NCBI GenBank assembly: GCA_031550085.1
Contig: JAVBOY010000022.1
Span: forward strand, 62,696 to 126,695
Length of the DNA: 64,000 bases
Direction: 5' to 3'
Origin: Lentimicrobiaceae bacterium
GTDB lineage: Bacteria; Bacteroidota; Bacteroidia; Bacteroidales; UBA4417
In this document: piece by piece, positions 14,210 through 63,880 of the stretch
How positions within the stretch are numbered: the stretch's first letter is position 1
Layout: each line of letters starts with the position of its first letter
Made by a program: the position numbers and the translations under genes
Notes under the pieces: model-generated
What the model saw: only the letters and a program-made list of their open reading frames with translations
What the model was told of the DNA's origin: nothing
Databases searched by the model: none

Positions 14210-14636
14210 TGTTGTTGAATGTTTAGAGTGAAATGTAAACAGTGAGGGGTGGGTTATTTGTTGAACTGTTGAATCGTTGAGTTGTTGAACTGTTTATTTG
14301 TAAGGTAACAAGTTTAGGGTTTACAGTTGACATTTGGTTGCCAAAAGGTTAAATAGGAGCTGTCCGATTTTAATTGAATAAGATAAATTAATCTAATGTT
14401 ATTCTATTTTAATCGCATAGGGGTACTTAAGTGAAACGTGAACAGTGAAGGGTGAGCTGACCTGTTTAATTGTTTATTGGGTGCAGGGTAAAAGGTGAAT
14501 GGAACAAGGTTTGTTATTCGTTTTTTGTTGTTCGCTTACTCGTCACCAAACCTCACTTTCAATTTTCCATTTTCAATTGAAAACTCGTTTACCAGTCTAC
14601 TCGTCAACGCGTTTACTAAACATTTTTAACTTTCAA
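14210..14636 (-). repeat. Intergenic mosaic repeat element, copy A
   Basis: 8-mer (ttgaactg/ttgagttg) and 7-mer (gtgaaNN, tttcaat) arrays, plus blocks shared with copies B and D. Confidence 0.9.
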
Positions 14637-15875
14637 CTATTTAAACTTCGGCAGATAATCCTTCATCATGTCTTTGTGTACCGCAAAATCCATCATTTTC
14701 AGTTTTACATAGTCTTCGTGGAAAAAGTAATACCCAAAGTTTTTATTTTTCTCTTTGCCACCCGTACGGCTTCCGGCTCCCGAATCTTTCACCAGAAACC
14801 AGGTTTTACCGTCCTTTTCCAGATAACCGACCAAATGCATTCCGTGGTCGTCGGTGGTGGTTTCGTTGCTGAAGCGGAATTGGCGTGCTTCGTCGTTAAT
14901 GTATTGCGAAGGAATATCATAGGAAGGAATCACGGCTGCATTGGCTTCGCGGGCTAAAAAGCCCGATTCCGATACATCGCCGCCGATGGAAAGGGTGTAG
15001 CCTTGTTTGATCGCCTTTTTCAGGATTTCCATATAGACATCCAACGGAACGTTGTAATAAGATTTATCGTGCCACCAGTTATCAGGAACTTCGTATTCAC
15101 ATTGTTTCCAGAAAGGCTGTTGCATATAACTCAATACATCGCAATAATCGTCCGGATTAAATTTGAGCACTTGTGTCATGTAATCTTTGGGCGAATACGT
15201 TTTTCCATTTACGGTAACCGTAGTGGGCGGCTCGCCGATATAATAATTGAGCAAGCTCTTTACATTGGCTATCATGGTTTTTTCATCCCAGATGTTGTTT
15301 TTTTTGCAAAAATCCAGGTAGGCCTTAAATTCATTGAATAGTTTTTCGTGGGTGTAAACTTTTTGTCCCGGAAGCAAGCCGGAATAAGCATCGTAGGGCA
15401 GGCAGCCATATTTTTTCATTTCGCGGGTAACGGCATTCCCTTCCGAACCTTCGCCGATGTTGATGTTTCCGCGTGTACGGATCCATTCCATCGTGCGCTC
15501 CAGGTATTCGTTGTAAACCGTAAACATTTCCGACAATTTTACTTTCTGTCCGGTAAGGCGGAAAATTTCACTTTCAACAAATGAGGTGGAAGCAAAGCAC
15601 CAGCAGGTATTGGTATTCCCCTGCGAAATGGGGTCGTTGTGCCAGAATTGGGTGAAATCCGCTTTATCCGCGGGAATGTTGTAGTTCGCCGGATCCGCTT
15701 TGAAGGCTTTGGTTGCTTTGGGCGTTTCTTTTTGCGATTGGAATTCTTCAATCCCTTTTAAAATGGTGTTTTGATAGTAGCCCGGTTCATAGGTTTTAAA
15801 AACAGCTTTGTCTTGTGCCTGAACAAATGGAAAGACGAAAAATGCGGATAAGGATGCAATGAAATATCGTTTCAT
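14637..15875 (-). CDS. C1-family (aminopeptidase C-like) exported cysteine peptidase
   Basis: QGNTNTCWCF (catalytic Cys) and DDHGMH (His) motifs, signal peptide. Confidence 0.88.
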   Translation of the reverse strand: MKRYFIASLSAFFVFPFVQAQDKAVFKTYEPGYYQNTILKGIEEFQSQKETPKATKAFKADPANYNIPADKADFTQFWHNDPISQGNTNTCWCFASTSFVESEIFRLTGQKVKLSEMFTVYNEYLERTMEWIRTRGNINIGEGSEGNAVTREMKKYGCLPYDAYSGLLPGQKVYTHEKLFNEFKAYLDFCKKNNIWDEKTMIANVKSLLNYYIGEPPTTVTVNGKTYSPKDYMTQVLKFNPDDYCDVLSYMQQPFWKQCEYEVPDNWWHDKSYYNVPLDVYMEILKKAIKQGYTLSIGGDVSESGFLAREANAAVIPSYDIPSQYINDEARQFRFSNETTTDDHGMHLVGYLEKDGKTWFLVKDSGAGSRTGGKEKNKNFGYYFFHEDYVKLKMMDFAVHKDMMKDYLPKFK

Positions 15876-15925
15876 AAAAATAAAGTTTTAAGCGCCAAAT
15901 GTAGAAATGTTTTCCTGTTCCGAAC

Positions 15926-15955
15926 AAAAAAAGCGGTGAAAATTTTCACCGCTTT
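15926..15955 (-). terminator. Terminator after pckA
   Basis: aaagcggtgaa/ttcaccgcttt stem plus U tract on the minus strand. Confidence 0.8.
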
Positions 15956-15976
15956 CACAACTCAAATTTTTGCCGT

Positions 15977-17599
15977 TTACACCTGAGGGCCTGCAGCGAC
16001 CAGGCGTTTCCCTTCGTCGTTGTCAGTATATTTTTCGAAATTGGCAATAAATTGTTGCGCCAAATCTTTGGCTTTGGCATCCCATTCGCTGCCGTTGGCA
16101 TACGTATCGCGCGGGTCAAGGATTTCCGGATTTACGCCTTTCAATTCGGTCGGAACTTCCAAGTTAAAGAAAGCGATTTTTTTACTGGGCGCCTGGTCGA
16201 TGGATCCGTTCAAAATGTTGTCGATAATAGCGCGGGTGTCTTTGATGGAAATGCGTTTTCCCGTTCCGTTCCAACCGGTATTTACCAAATACGCTTTGGC
16301 ACCGGCCGCTTCCATCCGTTTTACCAATTCGATAGCATACTTTGTGGGATGCAGCGACAAAAAAGCATTGCCGAAACAAGCCGAAAATGTGGGTTGGGGT
16401 GAAGTAATTCCGCGTTCCGTTCCGGCCAGTTTGGCCGTAAATCCCGACAGGAAATGATATTTCGTTTGATCAGCCGTCAATTTTGAAACCGGAGGCAAAA
16501 CGCCGAACGCATCTGCCGTCAGGAAGATGACTTTGGTGGCATGCCCGCCTTTGGAAACCGGTTTTACAATATTATGGATATGGTAAATCGGGTAAGAAAC
16601 CCGGGTATTCTCGGTTTTCGAACCATCGTTGAAATCGGGAGTTCCGTCGGGGAGAATCACCACGTTTTCTAACAGCGCATCGCGGCGGATAGCGTTGTAA
16701 ATGTCGGGTTCGTTTTCTTTGCTCAGGTTGATGGTTTTGGCATAACAACCGCCTTCGAAGTTGAAAACGCCGTCATCGTCCCATCCGTGTTCGTCGTCGC
16801 CGATTAGCAAGCGGTTCGGATCGGCCGACAGCGTGGTTTTTCCGGTTCCGGACAACCCGAAGAAGATGGCGACATCGCCTTCTTTTCCCATGTTGGCCGA
16901 GCAGTGCATGGAAGCGATCCCTTTCAACGGCAGGAAGTAGTTCATCATGGAAAACATCCCTTTTTTCATTTCGCCGCCGTACCAGGTGCCGCCGATCAGT
17001 TGAATGCGCTCGGACAGGTTGAAAGCCACAAAATTTTCGGAATGCAACCCTTGCTCTTTCCAGTTGGGATTGGTTGTTTTGGAACCGTTCATCACGATGA
17101 AATCGGGTTTAAAACCAACCAATTCCTCATCCGAAGGACGGATAAACATGTTTTTTACAAAATGGGCCTGCCAGGCAACTTCCATAATGAAGCGGACACT
17201 TAAACGGGTATCGGGATTGGCGCCGCAATAAGCGTCGACCACATACAGTTTTTTATCCGAAAGTTGTCGGGTTACCAATTCCTTTAATGATTTCCATACT
17301 TCGGGAGAGATGGGTTTGTTATCATTTTTTCCGATGGTCGACCACCAAACGGTGTTCTCGCTCACAGAATCTTTTACAATGTATTTGTCTTTGGGAGAAC
17401 GTCCGGTAAAAACGCCGGTATCCACGCTTACGGCGCCCAATGTCGACACGACTCCTTTCTCATACCCTTGCAGTCCGGGATTGGTTTCATGTTCAAAAAG
17501 GTCTTCGTAAGAAGGATTGTAGTAAATACCGGTTACCCCCTGGATGTTATATTGTTCTAAATCAATAATGCAGTTTTTTCGATTAATTGCTTGAGCCAT
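15977..17599 (-). CDS. pckA: Phosphoenolpyruvate carboxykinase (ATP)
   Basis: [25 protein letters not shown] and [10 protein letters not shown] motifs. Confidence 0.97.
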
Positions 17600-17766
17600 A
17601 GATAAGTATAGTTTTATGTGTTTAACGTTTCAAAGATAAAAAAACTTCGGTTACGAAAAATACCCGGCTTCATTTTCAAGAAAAAAAACATATTCGCCGA
17701 TGGTGAATGCAAGCCAGAAGTAAGTAGATCTGCAAAATAAAAATTTCAGGACGGAATCGAATTCGA

Positions 17767-18552
17767 TTAATTGTACCGTTTCCCGAAATTAAAGCTGACA
17801 TAAGCTGTTAAGAAATAATGGTAGGCCGGATTAAAAGCCATGATGGGAATGGCTTTCGGATATCCGTCGAGGGCTGCTCCGACTTCCAGTACTTTTACTT
17901 TTTTGGTATAGCGGCCGAATTCAACGTTGAAACCAAATTTTGTGTACAGGCCGGGGTAGAATTTTATTTCATCGATACCAGCTAAAAAAGGACCGTGGCT
18001 GTATATCTGCAAACCGTTTACATAACTTGGAAAATGTTTTTCGGGATCATATCTTTCAGTTTCGAGGGTATATGCGTATCCGTTGGGATCGATATAATTT
18101 GCAATCAGCAAATAATAGGGTTTCGTTATGCCGAGAGAAAGGCCCCCGTACCAGAAAGCCCGCACTTCGAGGCCGCCCCAGTACGGTTTTTGGGCGAGCA
18201 GTTTTTGTGCCCCATAACCGCCCCGGAGAATAAACAAATAATTCTCTTTTCCATAGATATACCGCCGGTTGTTATAGTCCAGCTCACTATTCCTTCTGAT
18301 TTCTTTGCTCGATTTCATTTGAAGAAAATCGATTTCAAACATCCGCTTTTGGAAATACGTTTTGTTCTTTCCGATCCGGTATCCGATGCCAAACCCGTTT
18401 GTATGGGCCGATATGGAAAAAGTCATCTCTTTGCGGAACAAAATGTCATTTTCAGCCGTGTCGGTTACGGAAGAAACATCCTGTCCGTAAACAGCATTGC
18501 CGGAGAATCCGATAAAAGCAAACAATAAGAAGAAACTTAAAAAATACCTCAT
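17767..18552 (-). CDS. Conserved exported/outer-membrane hypothetical protein
   Basis: Signal peptide, aromatic-rich beta-strand pattern, ends FNFGKRYN. Confidence 0.7.
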   Translation of the reverse strand: MRYFLSFFLLFAFIGFSGNAVYGQDVSSVTDTAENDILFRKEMTFSISAHTNGFGIGYRIGKNKTYFQKRMFEIDFLQMKSSKEIRRNSELDYNNRRYIYGKENYLFILRGGYGAQKLLAQKPYWGGLEVRAFWYGGLSLGITKPYYLLIANYIDPNGYAYTLETERYDPEKHFPSYVNGLQIYSHGPFLAGIDEIKFYPGLYTKFGFNVEFGRYTKKVKVLEVGAALDGYPKAIPIMAFNPAYHYFLTAYVSFNFGKRYN

Positions 18553-26283: not shown

Positions 26284-26658
26284 TTATTGAAAAAGTTGGA
26301 TTGTAAACCGTCCCAGGAAGGTGCAGGCCAACCCCAGCAAGATGCTGGCCAGAATATAGGCTACAGCCTGCATGTTTTCACCGTTCCGAAACAACAGGAA
26401 GGTTTCGTTCGAAAAAGCCGAAAAGGTGGTGAAACCACCCAGCAGTCCGGTGGCAATAAATAATTTCCATTCCTGCGGGACTTCGCTTTTTTCAACCATC
26501 CCGAAAAATAACCCGATGCAAAAACAACCGATCAGATTGACCGACAGGGTTGCAAAAGGAAAAGAGGTTTCCGTTTTGGTATTTACAAACAACGACAACA
26601 CATAGCGGAAAATTCCCCCGATAAAACTGCCCGTACCGACCAATAATAGCGCTTTCAT
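26284..26658 (-). CDS. crcB: Fluoride efflux channel Fluc
   Basis: GG..RY, TL.VN..GCF and GLLGGFTTFS motifs. Confidence 0.95.
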   Translation of the reverse strand: MKALLLVGTGSFIGGIFRYVLSLFVNTKTETSFPFATLSVNLIGCFCIGLFFGMVEKSEVPQEWKLFIATGLLGGFTTFSAFSNETFLLFRNGENMQAVAYILASILLGLACTFLGRFTIQLFQ

Positions 26659-26662
26659 GGTA

Positions 26663-27218
26663 TTTGAGTTGTTGAACTGTTTATTTGTGAAGTGTGAACC
26701 GTGAAGGGTGAAATGCCTGTTGAATTGTTTAATTGTTTAATTGTTTATTGGGTACAGGGTAAAAGGTGAATGAAACAAGGTTTGTTATTCGTTTTTTTTG
26801 TTCGTTTACTCATCACTCGTCACCCGTTACTCGTCACTAGTTTACTCATTAAATGCTTGCTTTTGTTTATTAGGATAATTAAATCTAATAATATTCTATT
26901 CTAATCGCATATCGTGAAACGTGGACAGTGAAGCGTGAAATGCCTGTTTAATCGTTTAACTGTTTAATTGTTTATTGGGTGCAGGGTAAAAGGTGAATGG
27001 TAAACTTGTTACCCGTAAACCTGTTAACGAATCATTTTCAATTCTCAATTCTCCATTTTCAATTATCTTGTTTACCCGTTACCCGTCACCAAACCTCACT
27101 TTCAACTTTTACTTTTCATTCGTAATTTTTAATTCTTAACTTTCAATTCTCCATTTTCAATTTTCAATTAAAACTCGTTTACTAGTCTACTCCTCAACTA
27201 GTCTACTAAAACAAAGTT
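26663..27218 (-). repeat. Intergenic mosaic repeat element, copy B (longest, internally duplicated)
   Basis: Two passes of gtgaa / tttaattg / gggtRcagggtaaaaggtgaatg, plus tttcaat, cgtYac and tagtctac arrays. Confidence 0.9.
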
Positions 27219-27680
27219 CTATAAATTTTTCAGCAGATTTGCCATTTCGATGGCCGACATGGCGGCGTCAAAACCTTTGTTACCCGCTTTGGTTCCGGCG
27301 CGTTCAATGGCTTGTTCGATGGTGTCGGTGGTCAGCACGCCGAAAATTACCGGAAACTCGGCTTGCAAATTTACAGCCGCAATCCCTTTGGTAACTTCGC
27401 CCGATACCATCTCGAAATGGGGCGTAGCGCCGCGGATTACCGCGCCCAGGCAAATCACTGCGTCATAGTTGCCGCTTTTCGCCATACGTTTGGCCACCAG
27501 CGGAATTTCAAACGAGCCGGGAACCCAGGCCACGGTAATGTTTTTTTCATCGCCGTCGTGGCGGCAAATGGCGTCGATGGCTCCAGACAGCAATTTTGAT
27601 CCGATTAATTCGTTAAAACGGCTTACAATAATTCCAAAACGCAAGCCTTTGGCAATTAGTTTTCCTTCAATTGTTTTCAT
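27219..27680 (-). CDS. ribH: 6,7-dimethyl-8-ribityllumazine synthase
   Basis: [23 protein letters not shown] and GNKG motifs. Confidence 0.97.
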
Positions 27681-27694
27681 AATTTATTTTTTTT

Positions 27695-28026
27695 TGTTGA
27701 GTTGTTGAACTGTTTATTTGTGAACGGTGAAGCGTGAAGTGATTGGATTAAGGTAAATGGTGCAAGGTGAACGGTACAGGGTGAAATGCCTGTTTAATCG
27801 TTTAACTATTTAATTGTTTATTTGTGAAGCGTGAACAGTGAAGGGTGAAATGCCTGTTTAATCGTTTAACTGTTTAATTGTATAAAACCCATTTTCAACT
27901 ATCAATTCTCCATTTTCAATTGAAAAGCCTTCTGCCTTCTGTAATTAAAAAAACTCGTTTACTGGTCTACTCGTTTACTTGTATCTAAAAAACACTTTCA
28001 ATTTTCAACTTTCCACTTTCAATTAA
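27695..28026 (-). repeat. Intergenic mosaic repeat element, copy C
   Basis: gggtgaaatgcctgtttaatcgtttaact occurs twice; also cttctgc, tcgtttac and tttcaa arrays. Confidence 0.9.
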
Positions 28027-29220
28027 CTACATCTGATGCCCCATCTTATTGATTTTGGTTTCCATGTATTTTTTATTGTTGTCGTTTGCTTGAATCACCA
28101 GGGGAATACGTTCTACGATCTCAATGCCGTATCCTTTTAATCCGTTCATTTTTAAGGGATTGTTTGTCATCAGGGTGATTCTTTTTACACCCAGGTTGGC
28201 CAGCATTTCCGAAGCCACGCCGTAATCGCGCAGGTCGGCGGGATAACCCAAGGCCAGGTTGGCCTCCACCGTATCCAAACCTTCTTCCTGCAATTCGTAA
28301 GCTTTCAGTTTATTGAGCAGGCCAATGCCGCGTCCTTCCTGGCGAAGGTACAACAAAATACCACGTCCTTCCTTTTCAATGCGTTGCAGTGATTCATGCA
28401 GTTGTTCGCCGCAATCGCAACGTTTCGAGCCGAAAATATCTCCCGTCAAGCATTCGGAGTGAATGCGCACCAGCACCGGCTCTTCGCCCGAAATATCTCC
28501 TTTGATCAAAGCCACATGATGTTCTTTGGTCACTTCATTCTGGAAGCCGACAATTTTAAAATCGCCGGTAACTGTGGGCATTTGGGCGACCGCTTTGCGC
28601 GACAGGAAATGTTCGTGCTGGCGGCGGTACTTGATTAAGTCGGCAATGGTAATGATTTTTAATTGATGCTTTTGGCAATATTCCATCAATTGCGGCACGC
28701 GCGCCATGCTTCCGTCTTCGTTCATGATTTCGCAAATCACACCGGCCGGTTGCATGCCCGCAAGCCGCGCCAAATCGACGGCAGCCTCGGTATGTCCGGC
28801 ACGGGCCAATACGCCGTAATTTTGAGCAATCAAAGGAAAAATATGCCCCGGACGGGTGAAATCTTCCGGTTTTGAATTCGAATCAACCAATCGCAAAATG
28901 GTTTCGGCACGTTCCTGTGCCGAAATACCTGTCGTTACGTCTTTCCAGTCGACCGAAACGGTAAAAGCCGTTTGTTTGCTATCGGTGTTTTTGGCTACCA
29001 TCGGATTGATCTGCAATTCGTTGAGCCGTTCGGCGGTCATCGGCATACATACCAGGCCACCAGCATGTTTCACCATAAAATTAATGATTTCCGGGCTTGC
29101 TTTTTCGGCAGCCACCACCAAATCCCCTTCGTTTTCGCGGTTTTCATCGTCTACCACCACCAGGGCTTTTCCGATACGAATGTCGTCCAAAGCCTCTTCT
29201 ATTGTATTAAATCTGTACAC
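28027..29220 (-). CDS. ribBA: Bifunctional DHBP synthase / GTP cyclohydrolase II
   Basis: [34 protein letters not shown] and QEGRGIGL motifs. Confidence 0.97.
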
Positions 29221-29237
29221 GTTATAATAAAATGTTT

Positions 29238-29888
29238 TTAAAAAAATCCGTTTTCTTTTAGTTTTTCCATTGTCAATCCTCCGCTCGGCGGAAGATTGCT
29301 TTCCGGTTTCATGAGTTTTTCAATGTATTTGCCGATCAGGTCACATTCGATGTTTACCTTTTCGCGGATGCGTTTGCTGCAAAGCGTAGTCTGGTTTCGT
29401 GTATGCGGGATAACCGATACGGTAAAATCCGTTTCCGATACGGATGCTACTGTCAGGCTGATTCCGTCAAGAGCGACCGACCCTTTTTCGATGATGTACC
29501 TTAAAAGAGAGGACTCGGCTGAAATCGTGATCCAAATGGCATTCTCGTCTTCCCGGAAGCTTTCAATAAGTCCTGTTCCGTCGATATGCCCGCTTACAAA
29601 ATGCCCGCCCAGGCGCGATGTCGGCAGCAAAGCGCGTTCCAGGTTCACACGGTCGTTGCTTTTCAGCAAATACAAATTCGACCGGTTCATGGTTTCAGGC
29701 ATGGCATCGGCAGCAAACGAGGTTCCGGAAATCCCGGTAACTGTCAAACAAACGCCGTTTACCGAGATGCTGTCTCCGATCCGAGTTTGGTTTAAAACCA
29801 GATCTGCGTTGATTTCCAGCACTGCCGAATGTGCTGCTTTGCGAATGGATTTCAGGGTGCCGATTTCTTCAATAATTCCTGTAAACAT
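29238..29888 (-). CDS. ribE: Riboflavin synthase (alpha chain)
   Basis: Canonical MFTGII N-terminus at 29888; [12 protein letters not shown] and GGHFVSGH motifs. Confidence 0.95.
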
Positions 29889-29890
29889 GG

Positions 29891-30994
29891 CTATTTGATT
29901 ACTTTTCCTTTGATTAAAAAATCTTGTCCCAACGTTTGATATGCTACTTGACAAAGTTTGACAGCATTTTCAATGGGGGCAAACCCTTTACCTTCGACCG
30001 GCGTAAGGGCGTCTTTCCCACCGATCAGCAAAGGTGCAATCAGGATTTGAACTTCATCTACAATTCCTGCTTGCAAAGCAGCTTCGTTCAAGGTGCCGCC
30101 GCCTTCGAGCAAAACACTGTCGATTGGCAGTTTGCCCAGTTCCACGACCAATGCATTCAGATCGACTTGTTTATTTGTTTGTGGAAGCACCCACACCAGA
30201 TGTCCCATTTCCGTCAATTGGCGCTGGATTTCTTCCGGGCATTGTTCTGTGGTGGCCAAAATCACCGGATTTTCACCGGGCGTTTGCAGCAATTTGGCAT
30301 TTAATGGGATGCGCCCTTGACTGTCTACCACAATCCGGCGGGGATTGCGCCCGCCTTCGGGCAACCGGCAAGTTAATTCCGGGTTGTCGATCAGTACCGT
30401 ATTTACGCCGACCATAATAGCCGAAAATTCGTTGCGCAGCCGATGTACGTAATTTTGCGATTCCGGGCCGGTAATCGGGCTGGGAAGATTTAAATGCGTT
30501 GAAATCTTTCCGTCCAGCGACATGGCGGTTTTCATCAGCACATACGGCCTTTTTTGAGTCATATATTTGAAAAATACCCGGTTTTGTTCAAGGGCTTCGG
30601 TTTCGCACAAGCCGGTAACTACTTCGATGCCTGCAGCCTGCAATTGTGCGATGCCTTTTCCGTTTACCAACGGATTGGGATCGGTGGCGGCTATAAAAAT
30701 TTTGCTGATTTTATTTTTGATCAGTAAATCGGTGCAGGGTGGCGTTTTGCCAAAGTGGGAGCAAGGTTCGAGGGTTACATAAATGGTGGCGCCTTCGACG
30801 GGTCCGGAGGATTGGGCAATGGCATTGACTTCGGCATGGGGACCGCCGAAATATTCGTGGTATCCTTTCCCGATGATTTTTCCATCGCGTACCAAAACCG
30901 CACCCACCAGCGGATTGGGATTTACTTTCCCTTTTCCGAGGTTGGCCAGTTCAATGGCTTGAAGCATGAAATTGCGGTCGTTGGTGGTTTCCAT
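29891..30994 (-). CDS. ribD: Bifunctional pyrimidine deaminase/reductase
   Basis: PNPLVG, HAE, TLEPCSH.GKTPPC and EGGG motifs. Confidence 0.96.
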   Translation of the reverse strand: METTNDRNFMLQAIELANLGKGKVNPNPLVGAVLVRDGKIIGKGYHEYFGGPHAEVNAIAQSSGPVEGATIYVTLEPCSHFGKTPPCTDLLIKNKISKIFIAATDPNPLVNGKGIAQLQAAGIEVVTGLCETEALEQNRVFFKYMTQKRPYVLMKTAMSLDGKISTHLNLPSPITGPESQNYVHRLRNEFSAIMVGVNTVLIDNPELTCRLPEGGRNPRRIVVDSQGRIPLNAKLLQTPGENPVILATTEQCPEEIQRQLTEMGHLVWVLPQTNKQVDLNALVVELGKLPIDSVLLEGGGTLNEAALQAGIVDEVQILIAPLLIGGKDALTPVEGKGFAPIENAVKLCQVAYQTLGQDFLIKGKVIK

Positions 30995-31030
30995 AAAATA
31001 AAAATCCCGAACAATTTAAATCATTCGGGG
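30995..31030 (-). terminator. Riboswitch-controlled intrinsic terminator
   Basis: Minus strand reads cccgaa...ttcggg followed by atttttatttt, immediately before the ribD ATG. Confidence 0.7.
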
Positions 31031-31084
31031 CGCATCATCTCAAAACCGTCACACAAAACAATTGATTTTGCGTGAGTTGAGCAG

Positions 31085-31215
31085 ATTCTTCTACCATCCA
31101 GACTTTACTGTCGGTAACGGAATTTCACCGTTTCGGTCTTCCTTTTTGAGTAAGATTCGCGGACTGTCACCGCCGGTTGGGACTTATGCCTTGCATTCAC
31201 CCGACCCCGAAGAAT
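31085..31215 (-). ncRNA. FMN riboswitch (RFN element)
   Basis: Minus strand: attcttcggggtcgggtgaa...tcccaaccggcggt..agtccgcga...cggtgaaattccg..accgacagtaaagtctggatggtagaagaat. -7 box TACCTTTG at 31223-31230. Confidence 0.95.
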
Positions 31216-31390
31216 TAGACTGCAAAGGTAAAACTATTTTTTGCTTTTTACCGATCCGGCTATTAAAAAAAGCAAAACCATACGCCGGTTTGCTTTGTGG
31301 AGTCATTTTGTTGTGTCCATAAATCATTGGAAGCTTAAAAAAAGTACATTTGCAACGTTAAATTTGTTATTCCATTTTTTATAAAACACA

Positions 31391-40848: not shown

Positions 40849-40877
40849 AAAAAAGCAGCCTGCGGGCTGCTTTTTTT
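40849..40877. terminator. Bidirectional terminator
   Basis: aaaaaagcagcc-tgcg-ggctgctttttt. Confidence 0.85.
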
Positions 40878-40921: not shown

Positions 40922-41354
40922 GAGTTGAACTGTTTAATTGTTTATTTGGTGAAATGGGTAAATAGGGGAAAACGGGGAAGTTGTGGAAATGGTTAAAGGT
41001 GCAAGGTCAACGGTAGAGAGTGAAATGGTTGTTGAATTGTTGAACTGTTGAATTGTTTATTTGTAAGGTAACAAGTTTATGGCTTACAGTTAACATTTGG
41101 TTGCCAAAAGGTTAAATAGGAACCTGTCCGATTTTGATTGAATGAGATAAATTAATCTAATATTATTCTATTTTAATCGCATAACGTGAAATGCTTGTTT
41201 AATCGTTTAACTGTTTATTTGTGAACGGTGAAAAGTGTTGTTTTTTGTTGTTCGTTGTTTGCTTGCCTCAACTCCATTTTCAATTTTCCACTCTCAATTT
41301 TCAATCAAAAACCCGTTTACTAGTCTACTTGTTAACTGTTACCTCATAAACCAT
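40922..41354 (-). repeat. Intergenic mosaic repeat element, copy D
   Basis: About 95-bp block shared with F and about 130-bp block shared with A, joined by an 8-mer array. Confidence 0.9.
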
Positions 41355-45145: not shown

Positions 45146-45405
45146 GAATTATGAATTAAAAATTACGAATGAGTTTTAGATACAAGTAAACGGGTTTTTA
45201 ATTACAGGAGGCAGAAAGGAAAAAGCAGAAGGCGGAAAGCATTTAAGATACAAAATAAACAATTAAACAGTTAAACGATTAAACAGGCATTTCACTCTTC
45301 ACGCTTCACAAATAAACAATTAAACAGGCATTTCACTCTTCACTGTTCACCCTTCACAAATAAACAGTTCAACAACTCAACAATTCAATAAACATCCATT
45401 TCACA
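45146..45405 (+). repeat. Intergenic mosaic repeat element, copy E
   Basis: Reverse complement of the A-D modules; caaataaacaattaaacaggcatttcactcttcac-type unit repeated. Confidence 0.9.
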
Positions 45406-45435
45406 TTACAAAAATCACATTAAACCCAAAATACA

Positions 45436-47616
45436 TTGACCGAAAATCCGCTATTTGTCGCAAAAACCTATGCCGGGCTTGAAGAAGTTTTGGCCAACGA
45501 ACTCACCCAATTGGGAGCCGGAAACATTGAAGTGTTGACCCGAGCCGTGGAATTTACCGGCGACCAGAAACTTATGTACGCCGCAAACTACAATTGCCGT
45601 ACTGCATTGCGCGTCTTGAAATCCCTGCACCGCTTCGAACTGGATAACGAAGACGATTTGTATTTGAATGTAAACCGTTTTCCCTGGGAACAATACTTTT
45701 CCATCCAACAAACCTTTGCCGTGGATGCCGTGGTGTTTGATTCGGAAATGACCCATTCGCACTTTGTAGCGTTGCGAACCAAAGACGCCATTTGCGACCG
45801 CTTCCGCGAGAGAAATAACGGCCGCCGCCCGTCCGTGGATACCGACAATCCCGATTTCCGGGTTCACATACACATTAGTCAAAATGCCTGCGATATCCAA
45901 CTGGACAGTTCCGGCGCTTCGCTGCACAAACGCGGCTACCGGGTTTCAAATGCCGAAGCTCCTCTGAGCGAAGTTTTGGCCGCCGGCTTGGTTTTATTGA
46001 GCGGTTGGAAGAAAAACTGCCAATTTATCGATCCCATGTGTGGTTCGGGCACTTTGCTGATCGAAGCCGCTTTGATCGCCAACAACATTCCTTGCGGCAT
46101 GTACCGGAAAGATTTCGGTTTTATGTATTGGAACGATTTCGACCGCGACCTGTTTGAAGAAGTCAAAGCCGAAGCGTTTGACCGGCAAACCGAATTCGAG
46201 TACGAAATTGTAGGCTATGATATTTCATCCAGAAACCTTTCGGCTGCCAAGGCCAATGTAAAAGCCGCCAAGTTGCACAAAGACATCCAATTGCAGGTTG
46301 CAGACATCCGCAATCTGACGCTGGATTTCGAGCAACCCGGATACCTTATTACGAATCCGCCTTACGGCGAACGGGTTAAATCCGATGATATCGTTGGATT
46401 GTACCGGGACCTGGGAGATGTGTTAAAGAAAAATTTCCAGAATTATACCGCTTGGGTGATTAGCGCCGATTTTTGGGCCTTGAAAAACATCGGGCTGAAA
46501 TCCTCGCAAACCCTCAATGTATGGAACGGTCCATTGGAATGCAAAGTGTTGAAGTTTGAATTGTATCAGGGATCGAAGAAAGGGAAATACCTGAGCCGGG
46601 AAGAAGAAGGAATGCAGAAAGCAGAAAGCAGAAGGAATAAAATAGAGGAAGCAGGGGAAATGGAGGATGAACACCGAATGCCGAAAGCGAAAAACAAAAG
46701 GGATAAAATAGAGGAAGCAGGGGAAATGGGGGAATCACCTTGGATGCAGAAAGCAGAAGGCAGAACGGAAAGCTTTTCGAAAGTAAAACGCGACCGGGGC
46801 GATCTGGGTAAATCCTTAAGCCGTCAAGAAAAACAAGACCTTCGAAGGAAATTCTTCACGGATGGAGAATCCGAAAATATGGGAGAAAAGGGCGCTTTTT
46901 CAAAAGAAAAAGAATCTTTTGCCGAGCGTAAATCAAGAAGTTTCGACAGGAAAGAGGATAAACCCTTTGGCGAACGTAAACCCCGGAGTTTTTACAACAA
47001 GGAAGACAAACCCTTTCGCGAACGCAAACCACGTAGTTTTGACAACAAGGAAGACAAACCCTTTCGCGAACGCAAACCACGTAGTTTCGACAACAAGGAA
47101 GACAACCCTTTTGGTGAACGAAAATCAAGAAGTTTCGACAGGAAAGAAGATAAACCCTTTGGTGAACGTAGACCCCGTAGTTTCGACAACAAGGAAGCCA
47201 AACCTTTTCGCGAACGCAAACCACGTAGTTTCGACAACAAGGAAGCCAAATCTTTTGGTGAACGTAAACCTCGAAGTTTCGATCGAAAAGAAGACAAACC
47301 TTTTCACGAACGCAAACCCCGGAGTTTTGATAAAAAGGAAGACAAGCCTTTCCGCGAACGTAAACCCCGGAGTTTTGATAAAAAAGAAGACAAACCTTTT
47401 CGCGAACGTAAACCCCGGAGTTTTGACAAAAAAGAAGATAAACCTTTTAAAGAGCGAAAATCAAGCGGTTTCGATAAAAAGGAAGACAAACCCTTGACGG
47501 CAGGGCGCAAATCGTTTATCGAGCGCCGTTCATTCGAACGCCCGCCGCTGGAAGGAGAAAAAGTCTATTTCAACGACAAATCCGAAAAAAAGCAACGCCC
47601 GCGCACAAAAAAATAA
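45436..47616 (+). CDS. THUMP-domain rRNA m2G methyltransferase (RlmL/YpsC-like) with a long repetitive C-terminal tail
   Basis: GLEE.L..EL, DSSG.SLHKRGYR, DPMCGSGT and NPPYGER motifs. The catalytic part ends at about residue 380 of 726. Confidence 0.9.
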   Translation: MTENPLFVAKTYAGLEEVLANELTQLGAGNIEVLTRAVEFTGDQKLMYAANYNCRTALRVLKSLHRFELDNEDDLYLNVNRFPWEQYFSIQQTFAVDAVVFDSEMTHSHFVALRTKDAICDRFRERNNGRRPSVDTDNPDFRVHIHISQNACDIQLDSSGASLHKRGYRVSNAEAPLSEVLAAGLVLLSGWKKNCQFIDPMCGSGTLLIEAALIANNIPCGMYRKDFGFMYWNDFDRDLFEEVKAEAFDRQTEFEYEIVGYDISSRNLSAAKANVKAAKLHKDIQLQVADIRNLTLDFEQPGYLITNPPYGERVKSDDIVGLYRDLGDVLKKNFQNYTAWVISADFWALKNIGLKSSQTLNVWNGPLECKVLKFELYQGSKKGKYLSREEEGMQKAESRRNKIEEAGEMEDEHRMPKAKNKRDKIEEAGEMGESPWMQKAEGRTESFSKVKRDRGDLGKSLSRQEKQDLRRKFFTDGESENMGEKGAFSKEKESFAERKSRSFDRKEDKPFGERKPRSFYNKEDKPFRERKPRSFDNKEDKPFRERKPRSFDNKEDNPFGERKSRSFDRKEDKPFGERRPRSFDNKEAKPFRERKPRSFDNKEAKSFGERKPRSFDRKEDKPFHERKPRSFDKKEDKPFRERKPRSFDKKEDKPFRERKPRSFDKKEDKPFKERKSSGFDKKEDKPLTAGRKSFIERRSFERPPLEGEKVYFNDKSEKKQRPRTKK
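46612..46768 (+). repeat. 66-bp coding repeat (about 2.4 copies) containing gcagaaa heptamers
   Basis: Units start at 46612, 46678 and 46744 (MQKAESRRNKIEEAGEM / MPKAKNKRDKIEEAGEM / MQKAEGR). Confidence 0.8.
46924..47499 (+). repeat. 12 x 48-bp coding tandem repeat (ERKPRSFDxKEDKPFx)
   Basis: Counted 12 units of 16 aa in the translation; variation is largely synonymous or conservative. Confidence 0.95.
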
Positions 47617-48945: not shown

Positions 48946-49305
48946 TTGAAAGTTGAGAATGGAAAATTGAAGTTGATTCGTTAACAGGTTTACGGGTAAT
49001 AAGTTTACCATTCACCTTTTACTCTCCTGTACCAATAAACAATTCAACAACTCAACGATTCAACAGTTCAACCGACTACTCACCGTTCACAAATAAATGA
49101 TTAAACAGGCATTTTACTTTATGCGATTAAAACAGAATAATATTAGATTTAATTATCGTAGTCAAAAAAAATAAGGTTACTCCTATTTCACCCTCTACCG
49201 TTGACCTTGCACCTTTAACCATTTCCACAACTTCCCCGTTTTCCCTATTTACCCATTTCACCAAATAAACAATTAAACGATTAAACAGACATTTCACCTT
49301 TCACT
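48946..49305 (+). repeat. Intergenic mosaic repeat element, copy F
   Basis: Blocks shared (reverse complement) with B (49 bp) and D (about 95 bp). Confidence 0.9.
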
Positions 49306-49323
49306 CAAAAACTAAATAACAAT

Positions 49324-61152: not shown

Positions 61153-61408
61153 AGCCGTATTTTTTTGATAAAATTAAAAAAAAATCAAGTTGTTATCTCC
61201 GGATTTTAGTAACGAAACAGGAAATCAAATTCAAATCAAATTTTCCGCAGAGGAATCCCACTGAATCGTACCATGCATTCAGCCCCTGATAAAACTCCTT
61301 TTTGGGGGTGGAATTTCGGAAAATCCGAGCCTAGTTTTGCTGAAAAATTTCGAAACGGCGGATTCCGAAAAGCCAACGAGTAGGAGCTAATTTAAATTTA
61401 TTATTTTC

Positions 61409-61957
61409 ATGAAAAAACTGCTTATTTTATGTGTTGCATTGTTTATCGGTGCACCGTTTGTATCGGCCCAAACTCCTACTTTTTGGGGGAAAGACAAAGT
61501 GGCTGGAATTGCAATAGGGTTCGGTAGTAACTTATATTCGGGTGTATTTTATACTGATGTAAAAACTACTCCTGCAATTTTGGGCCAGTTTGAATTATGT
61601 ATAAAAGATAACTTGTTTAACGACAAAAGTTCCATCGGTGTTGGTGGTATTATCGGTTATTCTTCTGCAAAAATCAGCAATGTATGGAAACGATCCAACT
61701 TTATTATTGGCGGGCGTGGAGTTTTCCATTATGCATTGGTTGACAAATTGGATACCTATGCAGGTTTAATGTTAGGGTATAATATTGTAAAATATAAATG
61801 GGAAGGAGGACTCGAAGTAAATAATACGAGCAGTAGTGGTGTAGTTCATTCGGAGTTTATCGGTGCCCGTTATTACTTTACCGATAATTTTGCTGCATTC
61901 GGTGAATTAGGGTATGGATATACATTCCTTAATTTAGGAGTTGCCTTGAAATTCTAA
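61409..61957 (+). CDS. Small outer-membrane beta-barrel protein
   Basis: Signal peptide, alternating beta strands, C-terminal F (GARYYF...ELGYG...GVALKF). Confidence 0.8.
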   Translation: MKKLLILCVALFIGAPFVSAQTPTFWGKDKVAGIAIGFGSNLYSGVFYTDVKTTPAILGQFELCIKDNLFNDKSSIGVGGIIGYSSAKISNVWKRSNFIIGGRGVFHYALVDKLDTYAGLMLGYNIVKYKWEGGLEVNNTSSSGVVHSEFIGARYYFTDNFAAFGELGYGYTFLNLGVALKF

Positions 61958-62038
61958 AAACGAATCTCCCTTTTCTGAAAAAGTTCGCCCATGGTGGCGG
62001 ACTTTTTTTTATCTTCGCCTTTTCAAGCACGTTATCGC

Positions 62039-62575
62039 ATGAAACGAAAAGAAATCCTGGAAAAATTTTGGGACATTGAAGATCGGGGCAAAATCCGGAT
62101 TCCATTGATTTTTAAGAACCCGACCCAACTATTTGAAAGCAATCTATCGATCCCATCCCAGAAACTACCTTTTATCAACCATGAAGTTTTTGAAGAACTG
62201 AACCGGATGTTAGAACATTTCTCATACAAAACAAAAATCGCTCTTTCATTTGCCTTTACCGATAAGCAAAATTATACCGACGCAGCCTTGCTGGATATCT
62301 TGCAAAGCAATTTCGAATTTCAAAAACAATTGCTGAAAAAAAATATCGTGAAAGTGTCGGCTGTTTCTATGGGTTTGGCGATTGCCGGATCCCTGTTGTT
62401 GCTGGTAAGTTATTTTCTGAATAGCCGGAATGTTTCACAACTTTTCTTTGATTTTGTCAACATCAGCGGGACTTTTATGGTTTGGGATGCTGTTTCGCGT
62501 TTCGTGATCGACCGTATTGCAAAATACCGCTCCATTAAGAAGTACGACAACATTCAAATCGAAATCGGCAAATAG
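62039..62575 (+). CDS. Hypothetical membrane protein (2 TM)
   Basis: ORF with two C-terminal hydrophobic helices. ATG at 62039 chosen because the upstream one lies in a terminator hairpin. Confidence 0.6.
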   Translation: MKRKEILEKFWDIEDRGKIRIPLIFKNPTQLFESNLSIPSQKLPFINHEVFEELNRMLEHFSYKTKIALSFAFTDKQNYTDAALLDILQSNFEFQKQLLKKNIVKVSAVSMGLAIAGSLLLLVSYFLNSRNVSQLFFDFVNISGTFMVWDAVSRFVIDRIAKYRSIKKYDNIQIEIGK

Positions 62576-62584
62576 AAAATATTC

Positions 62585-63073
62585 ATGTTTATACGAACCC
62601 AATCCATCGCAAATAAAAAATTAATCGGAATGTGTTTGCAAATGACTTTTGCAAATAATTTGACAACAAAACTCTGGCAGAGTTTTATGCCCCGCCGGCA
62701 TGAAATTACCAATGCCGCAAACCAATTGCTTTATTCAATACAAATATACCCGGAAACCTTTGATTTTAACCATTTCGATTTCAACCGGCCGTTCGAAAAA
62801 CGGGCAGCGGTAGAAGTTGCCGATTTCAGCAAAGTTCCGGAAGGAATGAAGGCCTTTGTATTGCCGGGCGGCTGGTACGCGCTTTTTTTGCATGCCGGGG
62901 CCCCGCAAGAAGGAGAACGGACATTCCGGTATATTTTTGAAGAATGGCTGCCCCAGTCGGGTTTTGTATTGGATCCGGCACGACCCCACTTTGAAGTGTT
63001 GGGGAAAAAATATAAAAACAATGCGCCCGATTCGGAAGAAGAAATCTGGATTCCCATAAAAAAACAAGTATGA
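62585..63073 (+). CDS. GyrI-like effector-binding protein
   Basis: LWQSFM, G.YA.F.H.G, YIFEEWLPQSG, RPHFE and EEEIWIPI motifs. Confidence 0.88.
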   Translation: MFIRTQSIANKKLIGMCLQMTFANNLTTKLWQSFMPRRHEITNAANQLLYSIQIYPETFDFNHFDFNRPFEKRAAVEVADFSKVPEGMKAFVLPGGWYALFLHAGAPQEGERTFRYIFEEWLPQSGFVLDPARPHFEVLGKKYKNNAPDSEEEIWIPIKKQV

Positions 63074-63110
63074 GCTATTTATTTTGATTACTTTTACATA
63101 AAAAATCAAA

Positions 63111-63626
63111 ATGAAACCCATCCTTCTTCTCATTCTGTCTTTCTTTTTTGGCTCAGCAGCGTTAAACGCGCAACAACTTCCTTTAGCTACCGAATACCCG
63201 AAAAAACAACTGGACTCCCTGTTAAATCGTTATTATTCGCAGGAAGCAAATGACATTAACCAGCCGCCGCAAACCGTACTGAACCGGTTTCAGGAGCATT
63301 TTCCAAAAGCCCGCGAAATCGATTGGGAAACGTACGATTACTTTTACGAAGCCGATTTTGAACAAAACAACGTCGACATCGTTGCTTTGTACGATTCGAA
63401 GGGAAATTTGCTCATGTGCCTGGTCGATATTACGAACCGTGACATTCCGGATGCTGTGAAAAAATCCGTGAATAACCGTTACAAAGGCTGGCGGATTGAC
63501 GATGCCGAAAAAATGTGCACCGCATATGAAACCCAATACCGGATTTACCTCGAAAAAAGTGGAAAAGAATTGAAAACCTTTTTTACCGACCGAGGCGAAT
63601 TTATTTCAGAAACGCCTCGTAATTAG
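63111..63626 (+). CDS. PepSY-like (BLIP-like/DUF2874) periplasmic protein
   Basis: Signal peptide and two P..V...F...(F/Y)P-type repeats with YEADF and YDSKG. Confidence 0.75.
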   Translation: MKPILLLILSFFFGSAALNAQQLPLATEYPKKQLDSLLNRYYSQEANDINQPPQTVLNRFQEHFPKAREIDWETYDYFYEADFEQNNVDIVALYDSKGNLLMCLVDITNRDIPDAVKKSVNNRYKGWRIDDAEKMCTAYETQYRIYLEKSGKELKTFFTDRGEFISETPRN

Positions 63627-63880
63627 TAGACAAGTTGACGAGAATTTCTTAATTACGAATGAAAATTTACGAATTACGAGTGTGTTTTTAACGCCGAATC
63701 TCTGTGCAACTCTGTGAATCCTCAGTGATCTCTGTGTAACTTTTTAAGGCAGAAAGGAAAAAGCAGAAAGGGTTTTAGACACAAATAAACAATTAAACAG
63801 TTCAACAATTCAACAAGCTACTCACCCTTCACTGTTCACGCTTCACAATTAAACAGTTCAACAACTCAACAATTGAGCAA
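63627..63880 (+). repeat. Intergenic mosaic repeat element, copy G
   Basis: gtagac/ttgacgag, aattacg, ctctgtg, gcagaaa, aaacaatt and ttcac arrays. Confidence 0.88.

Follow-up and report, generated by a model that had tools for sequence, protein, structure and literature searches.

Seven mosaic blocks and their neighboring genes

The window, meaning the whole 64,000-nt stretch of DNA that was analyzed, contains seven non-coding blocks (A to G), each with period-7/8 arrays inside it that were identified with Tandem Repeats Finder and by direct reading of the sequence, at the coordinates given in a preliminary description of this DNA. All seven (7/7) begin immediately behind the stop of an ORF that lies upstream in the same orientation; blocks B, C, E, F, and G end at the next start codon, and blocks A and D end before an intrinsic terminator. 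The blocks and associated features are:

14181..14212 (about), minus strand: intrinsic terminator hairpin and T-run closing block A
14210..14636, minus strand: block A, 3' UTR mosaic behind a papain-like (Peptidase_C1) gene (stop 14637)
26663..27218, minus strand: block B, intercistronic mosaic between ribH (stop 27219) and crcB (start 26658)
27681..28026, minus strand: block C, intercistronic mosaic between ribBA (stop 28027) and ribH (start 27680)
31082..31218, minus strand: FMN riboswitch heading ribD-ribE-ribBA-(block C)-ribH-(block B)-crcB
40922..41354, minus strand: block D, 3' UTR mosaic behind a histidine kinase gene (stop 41355), in a convergent gap
45146..45435, plus strand: block E, spacer separating a thioesterase gene (stop 45145) from one for an RlmL-like methyltransferase (start 45436)
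48946..49323, plus strand: block F, spacer separating a MiaB/RimO-type radical-SAM gene (stop 48945) from a DUF6156/RHS-repeat gene (start 49324)
63627..63885, plus strand: block G, spacer separating a PepSY-like gene (stop 63626) from a gene of the 3-dmu-9_3-mt family (ATG 63886)

Block A begins with G-type (i.e., G-rich/C-poor) arrays of ATTGAAA, GTAAACG/GTAGACT, and GGTGACG, followed by C-type (i.e., C-rich/G-poor) arrays of TTCAC, TTAAACA, and TTCAACA, and it includes a non-periodic module (14300-14432). The terminator at its end suggests that the upstream gene's transcript includes block A. Block B comprises two G-then-C units plus a non-periodic module (26871-26911), and such modules are also present in block D (41063-41183), with a terminator beyond the block at about 40849-40877, and in block F (49120-49192). 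Blocks C and B are predicted to lie within one polycistronic transcript headed by the FMN riboswitch. As first described, none of the seven blocks has a credible ORF or terminal inverted repeats.

A genome-wide family with ordered parts

With the seven blocks as seeds, an 11-mer scan yielded 203 clusters (81,156 nt in total), 185 of which are at least 100 bp long; the family of ~185 loci and ~81 kb makes up 2.5% of this 3.19 Mb Bacteroidota genome. Each locus fills the interval between the stop codon of one gene and the start codon or terminator that follows, and each block, 250-800 nt long, combines 7/8-mer arrays of 3-5 units drawn from about a dozen families. Period-7/8 arrays with at least three copies occur at 0.24 per kb in the genome versus 0.012 per kb in shuffled sequence, and their median length is 3.7 units (IQR 2.6-4.4; 90th percentile 5.1). 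With up to one mismatch allowed, the 19-mer of one module was found 104 times in the genome and its reversed control 0 times; there were 0-2 matches in each of 40 relatives, and the same range held for each of 24 same-genus genomes. A search of the blocks against Rfam matched no family, and the earlier proposal of a dispersed, combinatorial element family outside the IS, MITE, REP, and CRISPR definitions is supported.

The order of parts is strict: G-to-C transitions between arrays number 128 and C-to-G transitions 14, and the G-then-C pattern was seen in 84 of 125 co-directional gaps. This G-first rule is strand-symmetric and is also kept in divergent and convergent gaps. Each array family has a single facing relative to transcription, at about 4:1, as illustrated by ATTGAAA (120 G-form and 35 C-form in the sense direction) and TGTTGAAT (23 G-form and 93 C-form). 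This polarity tracks the gene under either sign of local GC skew (33:11 and 36:7), and the strand polarity first noticed in the window proved real across the genome: of the 176 loci for which a crude ORF caller gave an upstream call, 134 have the upstream gene on the same strand as the element's sense.

Whole blocks have been copied between unrelated junctions, and the copies diverge by single-unit indels and module exchange. Block B shares 84.7% identity over 575 nt, and ~95% over ~480 nt, with a locus just beyond the window (C18:56149-56887 in this genome, G000), and what sets the two apart is a number of 7-nt indels, the swap of one module, and a single hairpin insertion. The statement that no two copies share the same module order therefore needs a qualifier, as block B has this close counterpart outside the window. 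No copying enzyme was identified for the blocks, and a search of the genome for reverse transcriptases found none. The Y1/RAYT-like genes of this genome carry their own, different GC-rich REP hairpins. We know of no four-helix bundle that acts as a recombinase.

Comparison with relatives at block junctions, as the preliminary description had proposed, revealed empty and variant alleles, the empty junctions being short and array-free; the closest relatives are 70-80% identical in protein, a distance at which strain-level insertion polymorphism is beyond view.

Four-helix-bundle and GxxExxY genes between inverted arms

It had been suggested that short arrays flank four-helix-bundle (TIGR02436) and GxxExxY (TIGR04256) genes, and this was supported both here and in other genomes. 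All six four-helix-bundle genes (PF05635/TIGR02436) in this genome are flanked by inverted pairs of block array families, as is one of the two GxxExxY genes (PF13366/TIGR04256), the second (on C31) having a longer, different flanking repeat that belongs to no block array family. The arm families of these cassettes, which are also building blocks of the mosaics, are ATTGAAA, GTAGACTA/GTAAAC, GTGAAnn, TTGTTGAA, GGGGAAAT, GATGAAC, and CTCTGTG; in block G, for example, the CTCTGTG array at 63700-63737 is of the arm family of the GxxExxY cassette. Pairing between arms is possible, with duplex z from -1.2 to -5.8 over eight cassettes. For the abundant families GCAGAAG (54 arrays), AATTACG (53), TGTTTAAT (131), and GGTRACG (30), the assembly, which is 97.7% complete, contains no cognate cassette. 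One small HU-HIG gene likewise lies between inverted TCAAC arrays.

The inverted-arm arrangement is also present in other Bacteroidota, Chlorobium, and Geobacter, with a median of 4.3 units per arm outside this genome. In other Bacteroidota genomes, 15 of 29 PF05635 loci beat every one of 21 controls by >4 points, as did 12 of 26 PF13366 loci (23 of 26 were above the control maximum), versus 0 of 56 offset negative-control windows (3 of 56 above the control maximum). Array density is 0.89 per kb at nine same-genus four-helix-bundle loci and 0.067 per kb at 30 housekeeping loci. In a tree of 34 proteins, a single arm family accompanies every supported clade but one, most of these clades falling within one taxonomic family. 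The four-helix-bundle protein whose gene has TCAAC arms shares 55.9% identity (E 4e-42) with one from a Geobacter MAG that is flanked by arrays of the same 8-mer, and an identical 21-mer was found in MAGs labeled Chlorobium, Geobacter, Planctomycetia, and Saprospiraceae. Dispersed arrays are present in genomes with the cognate cassette and rare or absent in others (over five genomes, CTAAG 68/8/0/0/0, GTRAC 0/0/19/2/0, and TWRGCT 5/0/0/0/48), although these five were picked after the arms were seen and are related in pairs, such that shared descent could yield the same diagonal. The PDB homologs 2GSC and 2RLD have five chains apiece, and Xanthomonas XCC0516 is the nearest PDB relative of this genome's four-helix-bundle protein.

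The serC-serA gap is 528 nt long with its cassette here and 20-210 nt long, with neither arrays nor cassette, in 18 same-genus relatives, indicating that the arrays arrive with the insert rather than waiting for it. The suggestion that the blocks are empty landing sites was thus not borne out at serC-serA, the one cassette junction tested, and the arms in the window blocks are unpaired, with no empty hairpin pair. These results tie the puzzle of intergenic arrays to two protein families of unknown function, PF05635 and PF13366.

Origin of the blocks and comparison with known systems

The explanation that we favor, to which we give about an even chance, is that the blocks are "solo-arm mosaics," which lack a gene but derive from hairpin-armed gene cassettes, a widespread class whose proteins act in trans on their own arrays. 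The complete form would be a small gene, encoding either an Avd-like four-helix bundle or a GxxExxY protein of PD-(D/E)XK type, between two inverted arms, each repeating a single 7- or 8-mer ~3-5 times. In this genome, about a dozen families of arm arrays may have multiplied without their partners and been assembled into composite blocks that keep the G-then-C layout of the cassette, and whole blocks have been copied into short spacers between genes. There they show no folding beyond that of shuffles and finish as an A/C-rich, G-poor leader ahead of the next start codon; they are probably co-transcribed with their neighbors, and selection may have retained mostly the orientation harmless or useful to the mRNA, which would give the ~4:1 polarity. 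By analogy with RAYT transposases and REPs, each cassette protein could be the partner of its own array family, with one subunit per repeat unit. Any function of the blocks themselves is something that we infer.

It is possible, though rather improbable, that the blocks are domesticated RNA spacers, i.e., long unstructured 3' UTR or intercistronic segments kept by the host, for which the cassette link is merely historical. G-type arrays would then close all reading frames behind the upstream gene, and the A/C-rich, G-poor tail would serve as a leader for Shine-Dalgarno-independent initiation or as a platform for Rho loading or an RNA-binding protein. Placement from stop to start is consistent with this (99 of 134 loci begin at most 30 nt from the called stop, with the next start at a median of 20 nt), as is a polarity that goes with transcription. 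Unlike other intergenic regions, the blocks fold no better than their shuffles (mean fold z of +0.15 in 35 blocks vs -1.6 in 35 other intergenic regions). An average of 2.09 frames are closed by a G-type array, with all three closed by 83 of the 203 arrays of this type, and 126 of the 215 C-type arrays leave every frame open. Leaders (-40 to -1) beside arrays consist of A (40%), C (26%), and little G (6%, compared with 13% elsewhere). Translational regulation was also proposed for TAACTGA repeats just upstream of starts (MacGregor, 2015; PMC4679880). However, plain spacers of 20-210 nt suffice at the same junctions in relatives, blocks are also held by convergent gaps without a downstream start (e.g., block D), and ~95% identity across unrelated junctions points to recent spread instead of an old conserved function. 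The strand symmetry of the G-first rule, which extends to divergent and convergent gaps, makes it a property of the element rather than of the host gene.

Equally doubtful is that the blocks are inert debris, namely slippage-prone heptamer and octamer microsatellites homogenized by gene conversion, with no partner or function, into or beside which cassettes tend to insert. Single-unit indels between copies are expected from slippage, the vocabulary is missing from same-genus relatives, and among long simple repeats of prokaryotes heptamers are the most frequent class, for which polymerase slippage has been given as the cause (Mrazek, 2007, cited in PMC4679880). By contrast, the tightly bounded array length, the strict order, the family-specific polarity, the 21-mer shared among MAGs with different labels, and the tracking of protein clade by arm family all argue against debris, and the array-free serC-serA junctions indicate that no array was in place there before the cassette. 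The preliminary description had set such inert decay against its proposal; alleles and protein association both spoke against decay of that kind, but intergenic heptamer arrays as a kind had already been described (PMC4679880, PMC4692102, PMC2700814).

Quite unlikely is that the arrays are bound as dsDNA by a nucleoid protein or a global regulator, as proposed for 24, 21, and 8 pairs of opposite-strand tandem octa-/heptanucleotide sites in Geobacter metallireducens, with IHF/HU binding suggested (Aklujkar, 2009; PMC2700814), and as the HU-HIG gene between TCAAC arrays might hint, since divergent, promoter-bearing gaps are poorer in arrays (3.6% of bp) than co-directional (7.4%) and convergent gaps (6.6%), simple dsDNA sites are not expected to show polarity relative to transcription, and the blocks are located after stop codons rather than ahead of promoters.

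The blocks can be compared with several known systems. Long simple-sequence or heptamer direct repeats are present in intergenic regions, among them the STRR heptamers of cyanobacteria. Intergenic heptamer arrays of unknown function have been published; we did not find the cassette link or the mosaic grammar in print. TAACTGA repeats in intergenic regions of Beggiatoaceae, Cyanobacteria, and Bacteroidetes (MacGregor, 2015; PMC4679880) are similar in being short 7-mer runs (typically 2-6 copies), mostly facing the downstream start codon, sporadic over phyla, accompanied in some Bacteroidetes by other heptamers, and without a known function. They differ from the blocks, with their dozen families, G-then-C order, and 250-800 nt length, and TAACTGA as a direct repeat is absent (0) from this genome; a term search of that paper showed one inverted pair only and no mention of four-helix-bundle genes. 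The GGGAATC arrays of Xanthomonas likewise number ~180 heptamer sites per genome, 70-75 of them convergent inverted pairs capable of forming stem-loops, but they all belong to one G-rich family, which was studied for its G-quadruplex formation, with neither a mosaic nor a neighboring gene family reported in the available text (Rehm, 2015; PMC4692102). The "global regulator binding sites" of G. metallireducens (classes 1-4) are 3-5 tandem 7-9-mers, intergenic within operons, mostly in opposite-strand pairs at variable distance, as cassette arms are, and their octamer consensus TWGTTGAY resembles our TTGTTGAA family, although they were read as dsDNA IHF/HU sites and the available text names no cassette genes (PMC2700814).

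The REP/BIME and RAYT system (REPINs) also has a gene flanked by an inverted short repeat that is dispersed in hundreds of intergenic, co-transcribed copies, forming mosaic elements that are family-specific per genome. However, a REP consists of one imperfect palindrome and folds, which the blocks do not; the flanked gene encodes a Y1 transposase rather than a four-helix-bundle or GxxExxY protein, and the RAYT-like genes of this genome have other REPs. In the intervening sequences of 23S rRNA, a PF05635 protein is similarly encoded inside the insert, whose ends pair into a stem. These inserts are sporadic, some with an ORF and some without (bioRxiv 10.1101/2024.02.27.582315). Their host is rRNA, in contrast to the mRNA spacers here; the arms in the present case consist of tandem arrays, and neither the ORF nor the second arm survives in most copies.

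The seven blocks and their genome-wide family

The view that best fits the seven intergenic blocks (A to G) is that they derive from hairpin-armed cassettes and lack both gene and partner, a cassette being a gene for a four-helix-bundle (4HB; PF05635/TIGR02436) or GxxExxY (PF13366/TIGR04256) protein between inverted array arms. The blocks are real, as the preliminary description claimed: both TRF and direct reading of the sequences place period-7/8 arrays inside each of them. A non-periodic module of ~55 nt was located by BLAST in four of the blocks.

Intergenic blocks in window coordinates, with positions of the ~55-nt module
14210-14636, minus strand, block A (module at 14300-14432)
26663-27218, minus strand, block B (module at 26871-26911)
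27681-28026, minus strand, block C
40922-41354, minus strand, block D (module at 41063-41183)
45146-45435, plus strand, block E
48946-49323, plus strand, block F (module at 49120-49192)
63627-63885, plus strand, block G

Every block begins right behind the stop codon of a same-strand gene (7/7 in the ORF map); blocks B, C, E, F, and G reach the next start codon, and A and D end just ahead of an intrinsic terminator. The neighbors are unrelated housekeeping genes (C1-type peptidase, ribBA, ribH, crcB, histidine kinase, thioesterase, RlmL-like methyltransferase, MiaB/RimO-type enzyme, and PepSY-like protein), and blocks C and B are internal to an operon with the order FMN riboswitch-ribD-ribE-ribBA-(C)-ribH-(B)-crcB. 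The encoded products include a T9SS sorting domain and an HU-HIG protein, both signs of a Bacteroidota genome. The RlmL-like gene (ORF 45436-47616, plus strand) carries a long C-terminal extension at 46610-47492, consisting of twelve 48-bp (16-codon) tandem repeats and two 66-bp repeats, for which Pfam gave only a sub-threshold Fibrinogen_BP match. The ~55-nt module always lies behind a TTCAC array and recurs at many loci beyond blocks A, B, D, and F (two BLAST queries gave 120 HSPs, and all 70 among the matches listed were the module); neither structure nor an ORF was detected in it.

The window (C18:62696-126695) belongs to a genome of 3.19 Mb in 60 contigs, in which TRF finds 867 period-7 and 516 period-8 arrays (1347 without overlaps). 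Arrays of at least three copies occur at 0.24 per kb, compared with 0.012 per kb in shuffled sequence. Array length in general is small and varies little (median 3.7 units, IQR 2.6-4.4). The genome-wide word scan proposed in the preliminary description, run with 11-mers from the blocks, returned 203 clusters (185 of at least 100 bp; total 81,156 nt), and array-bearing DNA makes up 2.5% of the genome. One module has 104 copies here, and each of 40 relatives has 0-2. At least 12 of the 60 contigs begin in or beside such a locus, and we therefore attribute contig breaks in the assembly to the arrays. Fourteen seed families take in 980 arrays.

Largest seed families
ATTGAAA, 244 arrays
TGTTGAAT, 185 arrays
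TGTTTAAT, 131 arrays
GTGAAGG, 105 arrays

Cassettes with inverted array arms

The genome holds six PF05635 and two PF13366 genes, whose assignments to TIGR02436 ("four helix bundle protein") and TIGR04256 ("GxxExxY protein") were confirmed; the match to the DGR protein Avd is weak and sub-threshold. Each of the six 4HB genes, and one GxxExxY gene of the two, is enclosed by an inverted array pair, and the seven cassette arm families are families also found in the mosaic blocks. The cassettes seen are single, with arms on both sides, and arm-arm duplex z ranges from -1.2 to -5.8 across eight cassettes. The second GxxExxY gene (C31:47137-47472, plus strand) has no 7/8-mer arrays at its flanks, which instead carry several copies of a longer, ~60-70-nt unit with an inverted repeat of its own. 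Flanks as complementary as those of the cassettes were found at only 16 of 2312 called genes, including three 4HB genes, one GxxExxY gene, two RAYT-like genes, and transposases. Second in flank score among the 2312 is a 1531-aa ORF flanked by a 46-nt inverted repeat (C57:3091-7683, plus strand), with an N-terminus that is Cas9-like by eye. For the four orphan array families (GCAGAAG, AATTACG, GGTRACG, and one family of 131 arrays), no cassette was found among all 2312 called genes.

The blocks share with the cassettes the arm vocabulary and the order of G-type (G-rich, C-poor) followed by C-type (C-rich, G-poor) arrays. No 4HB or GxxExxY cassette gene lies inside the seven blocks, where sense ORFs of at least 80 aa are absent save for neighbor overlaps and the Pfam matches fall elsewhere. 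Same-family inverted arm pairs are also absent from the blocks, the arms being drawn from non-matching families (duplex z -1.7 to +0.2).

Among 121 genomes sampled from the phylum, PF05635 is present in 96 and PF13366 in 66. In a flank-vs.-flank alignment test, which left out locus L059 and any locus that had N or whose flanks were short, the score lay more than 4 points over all 21 controls at 15 of 29 4HB loci and 12 of 26 GxxExxY loci. The control maximum was exceeded at 23 of the 26 GxxExxY loci, and among 56 offset control windows three exceeded it, none by more than 4 points. Arms elsewhere are mostly period-7 arrays (31 of 36), with a median of 4.3 units, and those of GxxExxY genes in other genomes are mostly of the CACAGAG family. 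Within the genus, 4HB genes occur in 45/45 genomes (2-14 per genome), and array density is 0.89 per kb in nine 4HB loci vs. 0.067 in 30 housekeeping loci. At seven of these nine loci (L230, L231, and L233-L237) the arms are inverted heptamers of the TTTAGGG/CCCTAAA type, with ~4.6 units per arm; TTTAGGG is also the plant telomere repeat heptamer.

Beyond these genomes, an exact 21-mer of the TCAAC family was found in MAGs labeled Chlorobium, Chlorobiales, Geobacter, Geobacteraceae, and Desulfuromonas, as well as Planctomycetia, Saprospiraceae, Rikenellaceae, and Bacteroidales, usually as an inverted pair between stop and start codons with further arrays inside. The TCAAC-armed 4HB protein has its best match in a Geobacter MAG gene with the same arrays (55.9% over 118 aa, E 4e-42). 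A BLAST search with block B gave one match of 33-37 nt in each of the plasmid and phage collections, the plasmid match being an inverted but "empty" pair of ATTGAAA arrays that separates two Parabacteroides genes, and a four-unit TTCAAC pattern matched only 20 DNA stretches in the viral collection. When 34 4HB proteins (leaving out L047 and one duplicate of L070) were placed in a tree, all supported clades save one had a single arm family, and one such clade spans three taxonomic families. Across genomes and phyla, arm type goes with protein type. Counts of three arm patterns in five genomes (68/8/0/0/0, 0/0/19/2/0, and 5/0/0/0/48) are high only with the cognate cassette, a tie between abundance and cassette that is suggestive only, the five genomes having been chosen after the arms were seen and being related in pairs.

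From the adjacency of gene and site, the tracking of arms by protein clades, the ~4-5-unit arrays, and the five chains in each of two PDB homologs, we infer that 4HB and GxxExxY proteins bind their own arrays; Avd is a pentamer. In a fuller and tentative form, which we consider possible but doubtful, the 4HB (Avd-like, "23S rRNA IVS") and GxxExxY proteins would be sequence-specific partners of tandem 7/8-mer arrays, with one subunit per unit and five units per pentamer, each gene being enclosed by its own sites, with further copies of these sites seeded through the mRNAs or DNA of the genome. The Avd-related 4HB proteins found in 23S rRNA intervening sequences are not known to have a role outside DGRs.

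Order, polarity, and a probable constraint on the transcript

G-type arrays precede C-type arrays, with 128 G-to-C vs. 14 C-to-G transitions between neighboring arrays. Among gaps with at least two arrays, this pattern is seen in 84/125 co-directional, 13/23 convergent, and 11/19 divergent gaps, counts that are approximate because genes were called with a crude longest-ORF script (at least 100 aa). Since the G-then-C order reads alike on both strands, it is a property of the element. Every array family, moreover, has a favored form on the sense strand of the flanking genes: sense-strand ratios of G-form to C-form are 120:35 for ATTGAAA, 23:2 for GTAGACTA, and 19:0 for GCAGAAG, and they are 23:93 for TGTTGAAT and 16:45 for GTGAAGG (orientation counts exclude 352 of the 1347 arrays, which the caller placed "in genes"). 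The upstream gene lies on the sense strand of the element at 134 of 176 loci, and 99 of these 134 begin within 30 nt past a called stop, with the next start at a median of 20 nt.

Replication direction as the source of this polarity is unsupported by the GC-skew proxy: polarity tracks the gene under either sign of local skew (33:11 and 36:7), although the proxy is weak, gene strand itself not following skew.

Structure was sought at several levels. At gathering scores, Rfam matched only the FMN riboswitch and the DUF805b RNA in the window, the latter (RF02914, 61355-61386, plus strand) at 36.3 bits vs. a gathering score of 35.6. The Rfam search suggested in the preliminary description found nothing in 26600-28100 at E values up to 1. 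Block A, with its terminator included, has a fold z of -2.09 and block B one of +1.53; the mean is +0.15 in 35 blocks vs. -1.6 in 35 other co-directional intergenic regions. We rejected a structured RNA on the absent Rfam match and on the 35 blocks folding like shuffles, and base-pairing between the G-type and C-type halves of a block on the half-vs.-half duplex z of -1.7 to +0.2 in the seven window blocks. G-type arrays close a mean of 2.09 sense reading frames (all three in 83/203), and 126/215 C-type arrays close none. The 40 nt ahead of array-adjacent starts are 40% A, 26% C, and 6% G, with G at 13% at other co-directional gaps.

Taken together, polarity, placement, and missing structure indicate that the constraint on the blocks lies at the transcript level. 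For work on Shine-Dalgarno-independent gene expression in Bacteroidota, the blocks provide long, unstructured spacers of natural origin between cistrons.

Spread of the blocks and comparison with known systems

The preliminary description took the blocks for a dispersed family related to arrays that flank 4HB and GxxExxY genes, which stands, and suggested that they could be empty landing sites, which is not supported, since at the one cassette junction compared, serC-serA, relatives are array-free. This gap measures 528 nt with the cassette here vs. 20-210 nt, with no arrays, in 18 same-genus relatives (one further locus was left aside). The closest relatives share 70-80% protein identity, and in the closest by serC (74% identity) a 4HB gene lies just past serA (L211, G019:C10:177392-177703), so that cassette position differs between the two genomes. 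At the miaB junction, which the same description had proposed to compare, the relatives examined have ordinary sequence 3' of the MiaB-type gene. A ribH query (27219-27680) had no match in the 18 same-genus genomes and matched nine genomes from other families of the order (best 70% identity); the rib operon (26284-31218) may be of foreign origin here or may have been lost in other lineages. Because ribH was not found in those 18 genomes, comparison of the rib junctions turned to 73 metagenome contigs whose ribH is 65-75% identical; there the gap upstream of ribH runs from -4 to 331 nt, with a single one of 1205, and arrays of other families are present in 11.

The blocks multiply as composite wholes and change one unit at a time. 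Block B and C18:56149-56887, which has other flanking genes, share 84.7% identity over 575 nt and ~95% over ~480 nt, and are set apart by 7-nt indels, a single module exchange, and a single hairpin insertion. Their similarity ends a few nt short of the flanking stop and start codons, and no target-site duplication is visible at the ends of these two near-identical copies. Spread may be due to RAYT/IS200-type Y1 transposases, considered here because they act on one strand and leave neither terminal inverted repeats nor duplications, although the Y1 genes here are flanked by repeats different from the block arrays. There are seven PF01797 matches, and in the five whose flanks were read no cognate Y1 (RAYT) gene lies between inverted copies of block arrays: three have GC-rich hairpin repeats unlike the arrays, one on C20 has neither, and one (C4:143431) is downstream of a mosaic block.

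RAYT-like Y1 genes between their own GC-rich hairpin repeats
C60:21852-22196
C51:2973-3317
C41:54753-55094

These three loci represent a further repeat system of the genome, one of the classical REP type; the C60 repeats form a tandem series of ~50-nt units. Reverse transcriptase (PF00078) gave no match in the 97.7% complete assembly, and no copying enzyme for the blocks was found among the reverse transcriptase and Y1/RAYT genes searched.

As first proposed, the blocks fall outside several familiar element classes. The seven blocks have neither an ORF nor a terminal inverted repeat, and are thus not MITEs or insertion sequences; their units are 7-8 nt long and directly adjacent without spacers, unlike CRISPRs with 24-48-nt repeats and unique spacers; and they do not form the stable hairpins of REP/BIME elements (mean z +0.15, n = 35, vs. 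-1.6 in controls). They do belong with the long simple-sequence tandem arrays, a class defined by head-to-tail direct repeats of 5-11-nt units that exceed chance length at many intergenic loci. Intergenic heptamer repeats have been published for several phyla (2009, 2015) without a mechanism (PMC2700814, PMC4679880, PMC4692102). They include the TAACTGA repeats, intergenic heptamer arrays described as of unknown function (MacGregor, 2015; PMC4679880), the GGGAATC arrays of Xanthomonas with 70-75 inverted pairs (Rehm, PMC4692102), and the paired octa/heptanucleotide sites of Geobacter (PMC2700814). No run of two or more TAACTGA units occurs on either strand of this genome. Other reports place PF05635 genes between cas genes (PMC3936711) and in rRNA insertions (bioRxiv 10.1101/2024.02.27.582315), and treat the proteins as Avd relatives (PMC10053308). 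Intergenic heptamer arrays are thus known as a kind, and their link to 4HB/GxxExxY genes was not found in print; we found no paper tying arrays to PF05635/TIGR02436 or GxxExxY, although the neighbor-gene supplements of PMC2700814 and PMC4679880 may show such neighbors.

This genome is an extreme case that joins two puzzles, in that its repeat families are the arms of 4HB/GxxExxY cassettes. Two descriptive puzzles thereby become one testable hypothesis, that of a cognate protein-array pair, with six ready pairs in the genome, and the link to two protein families is potentially far-reaching. If the proteins are indeed partners of the arrays, this would give a function to a protein family that has had none, would explain the intergenic heptamers of Cyanobacteria, Xanthomonas, Geobacter, Chlorobium, and Bacteroidota, and would amount to a system shared across phyla, either RAYT/REPIN-like or resembling a regulator and its regulon.
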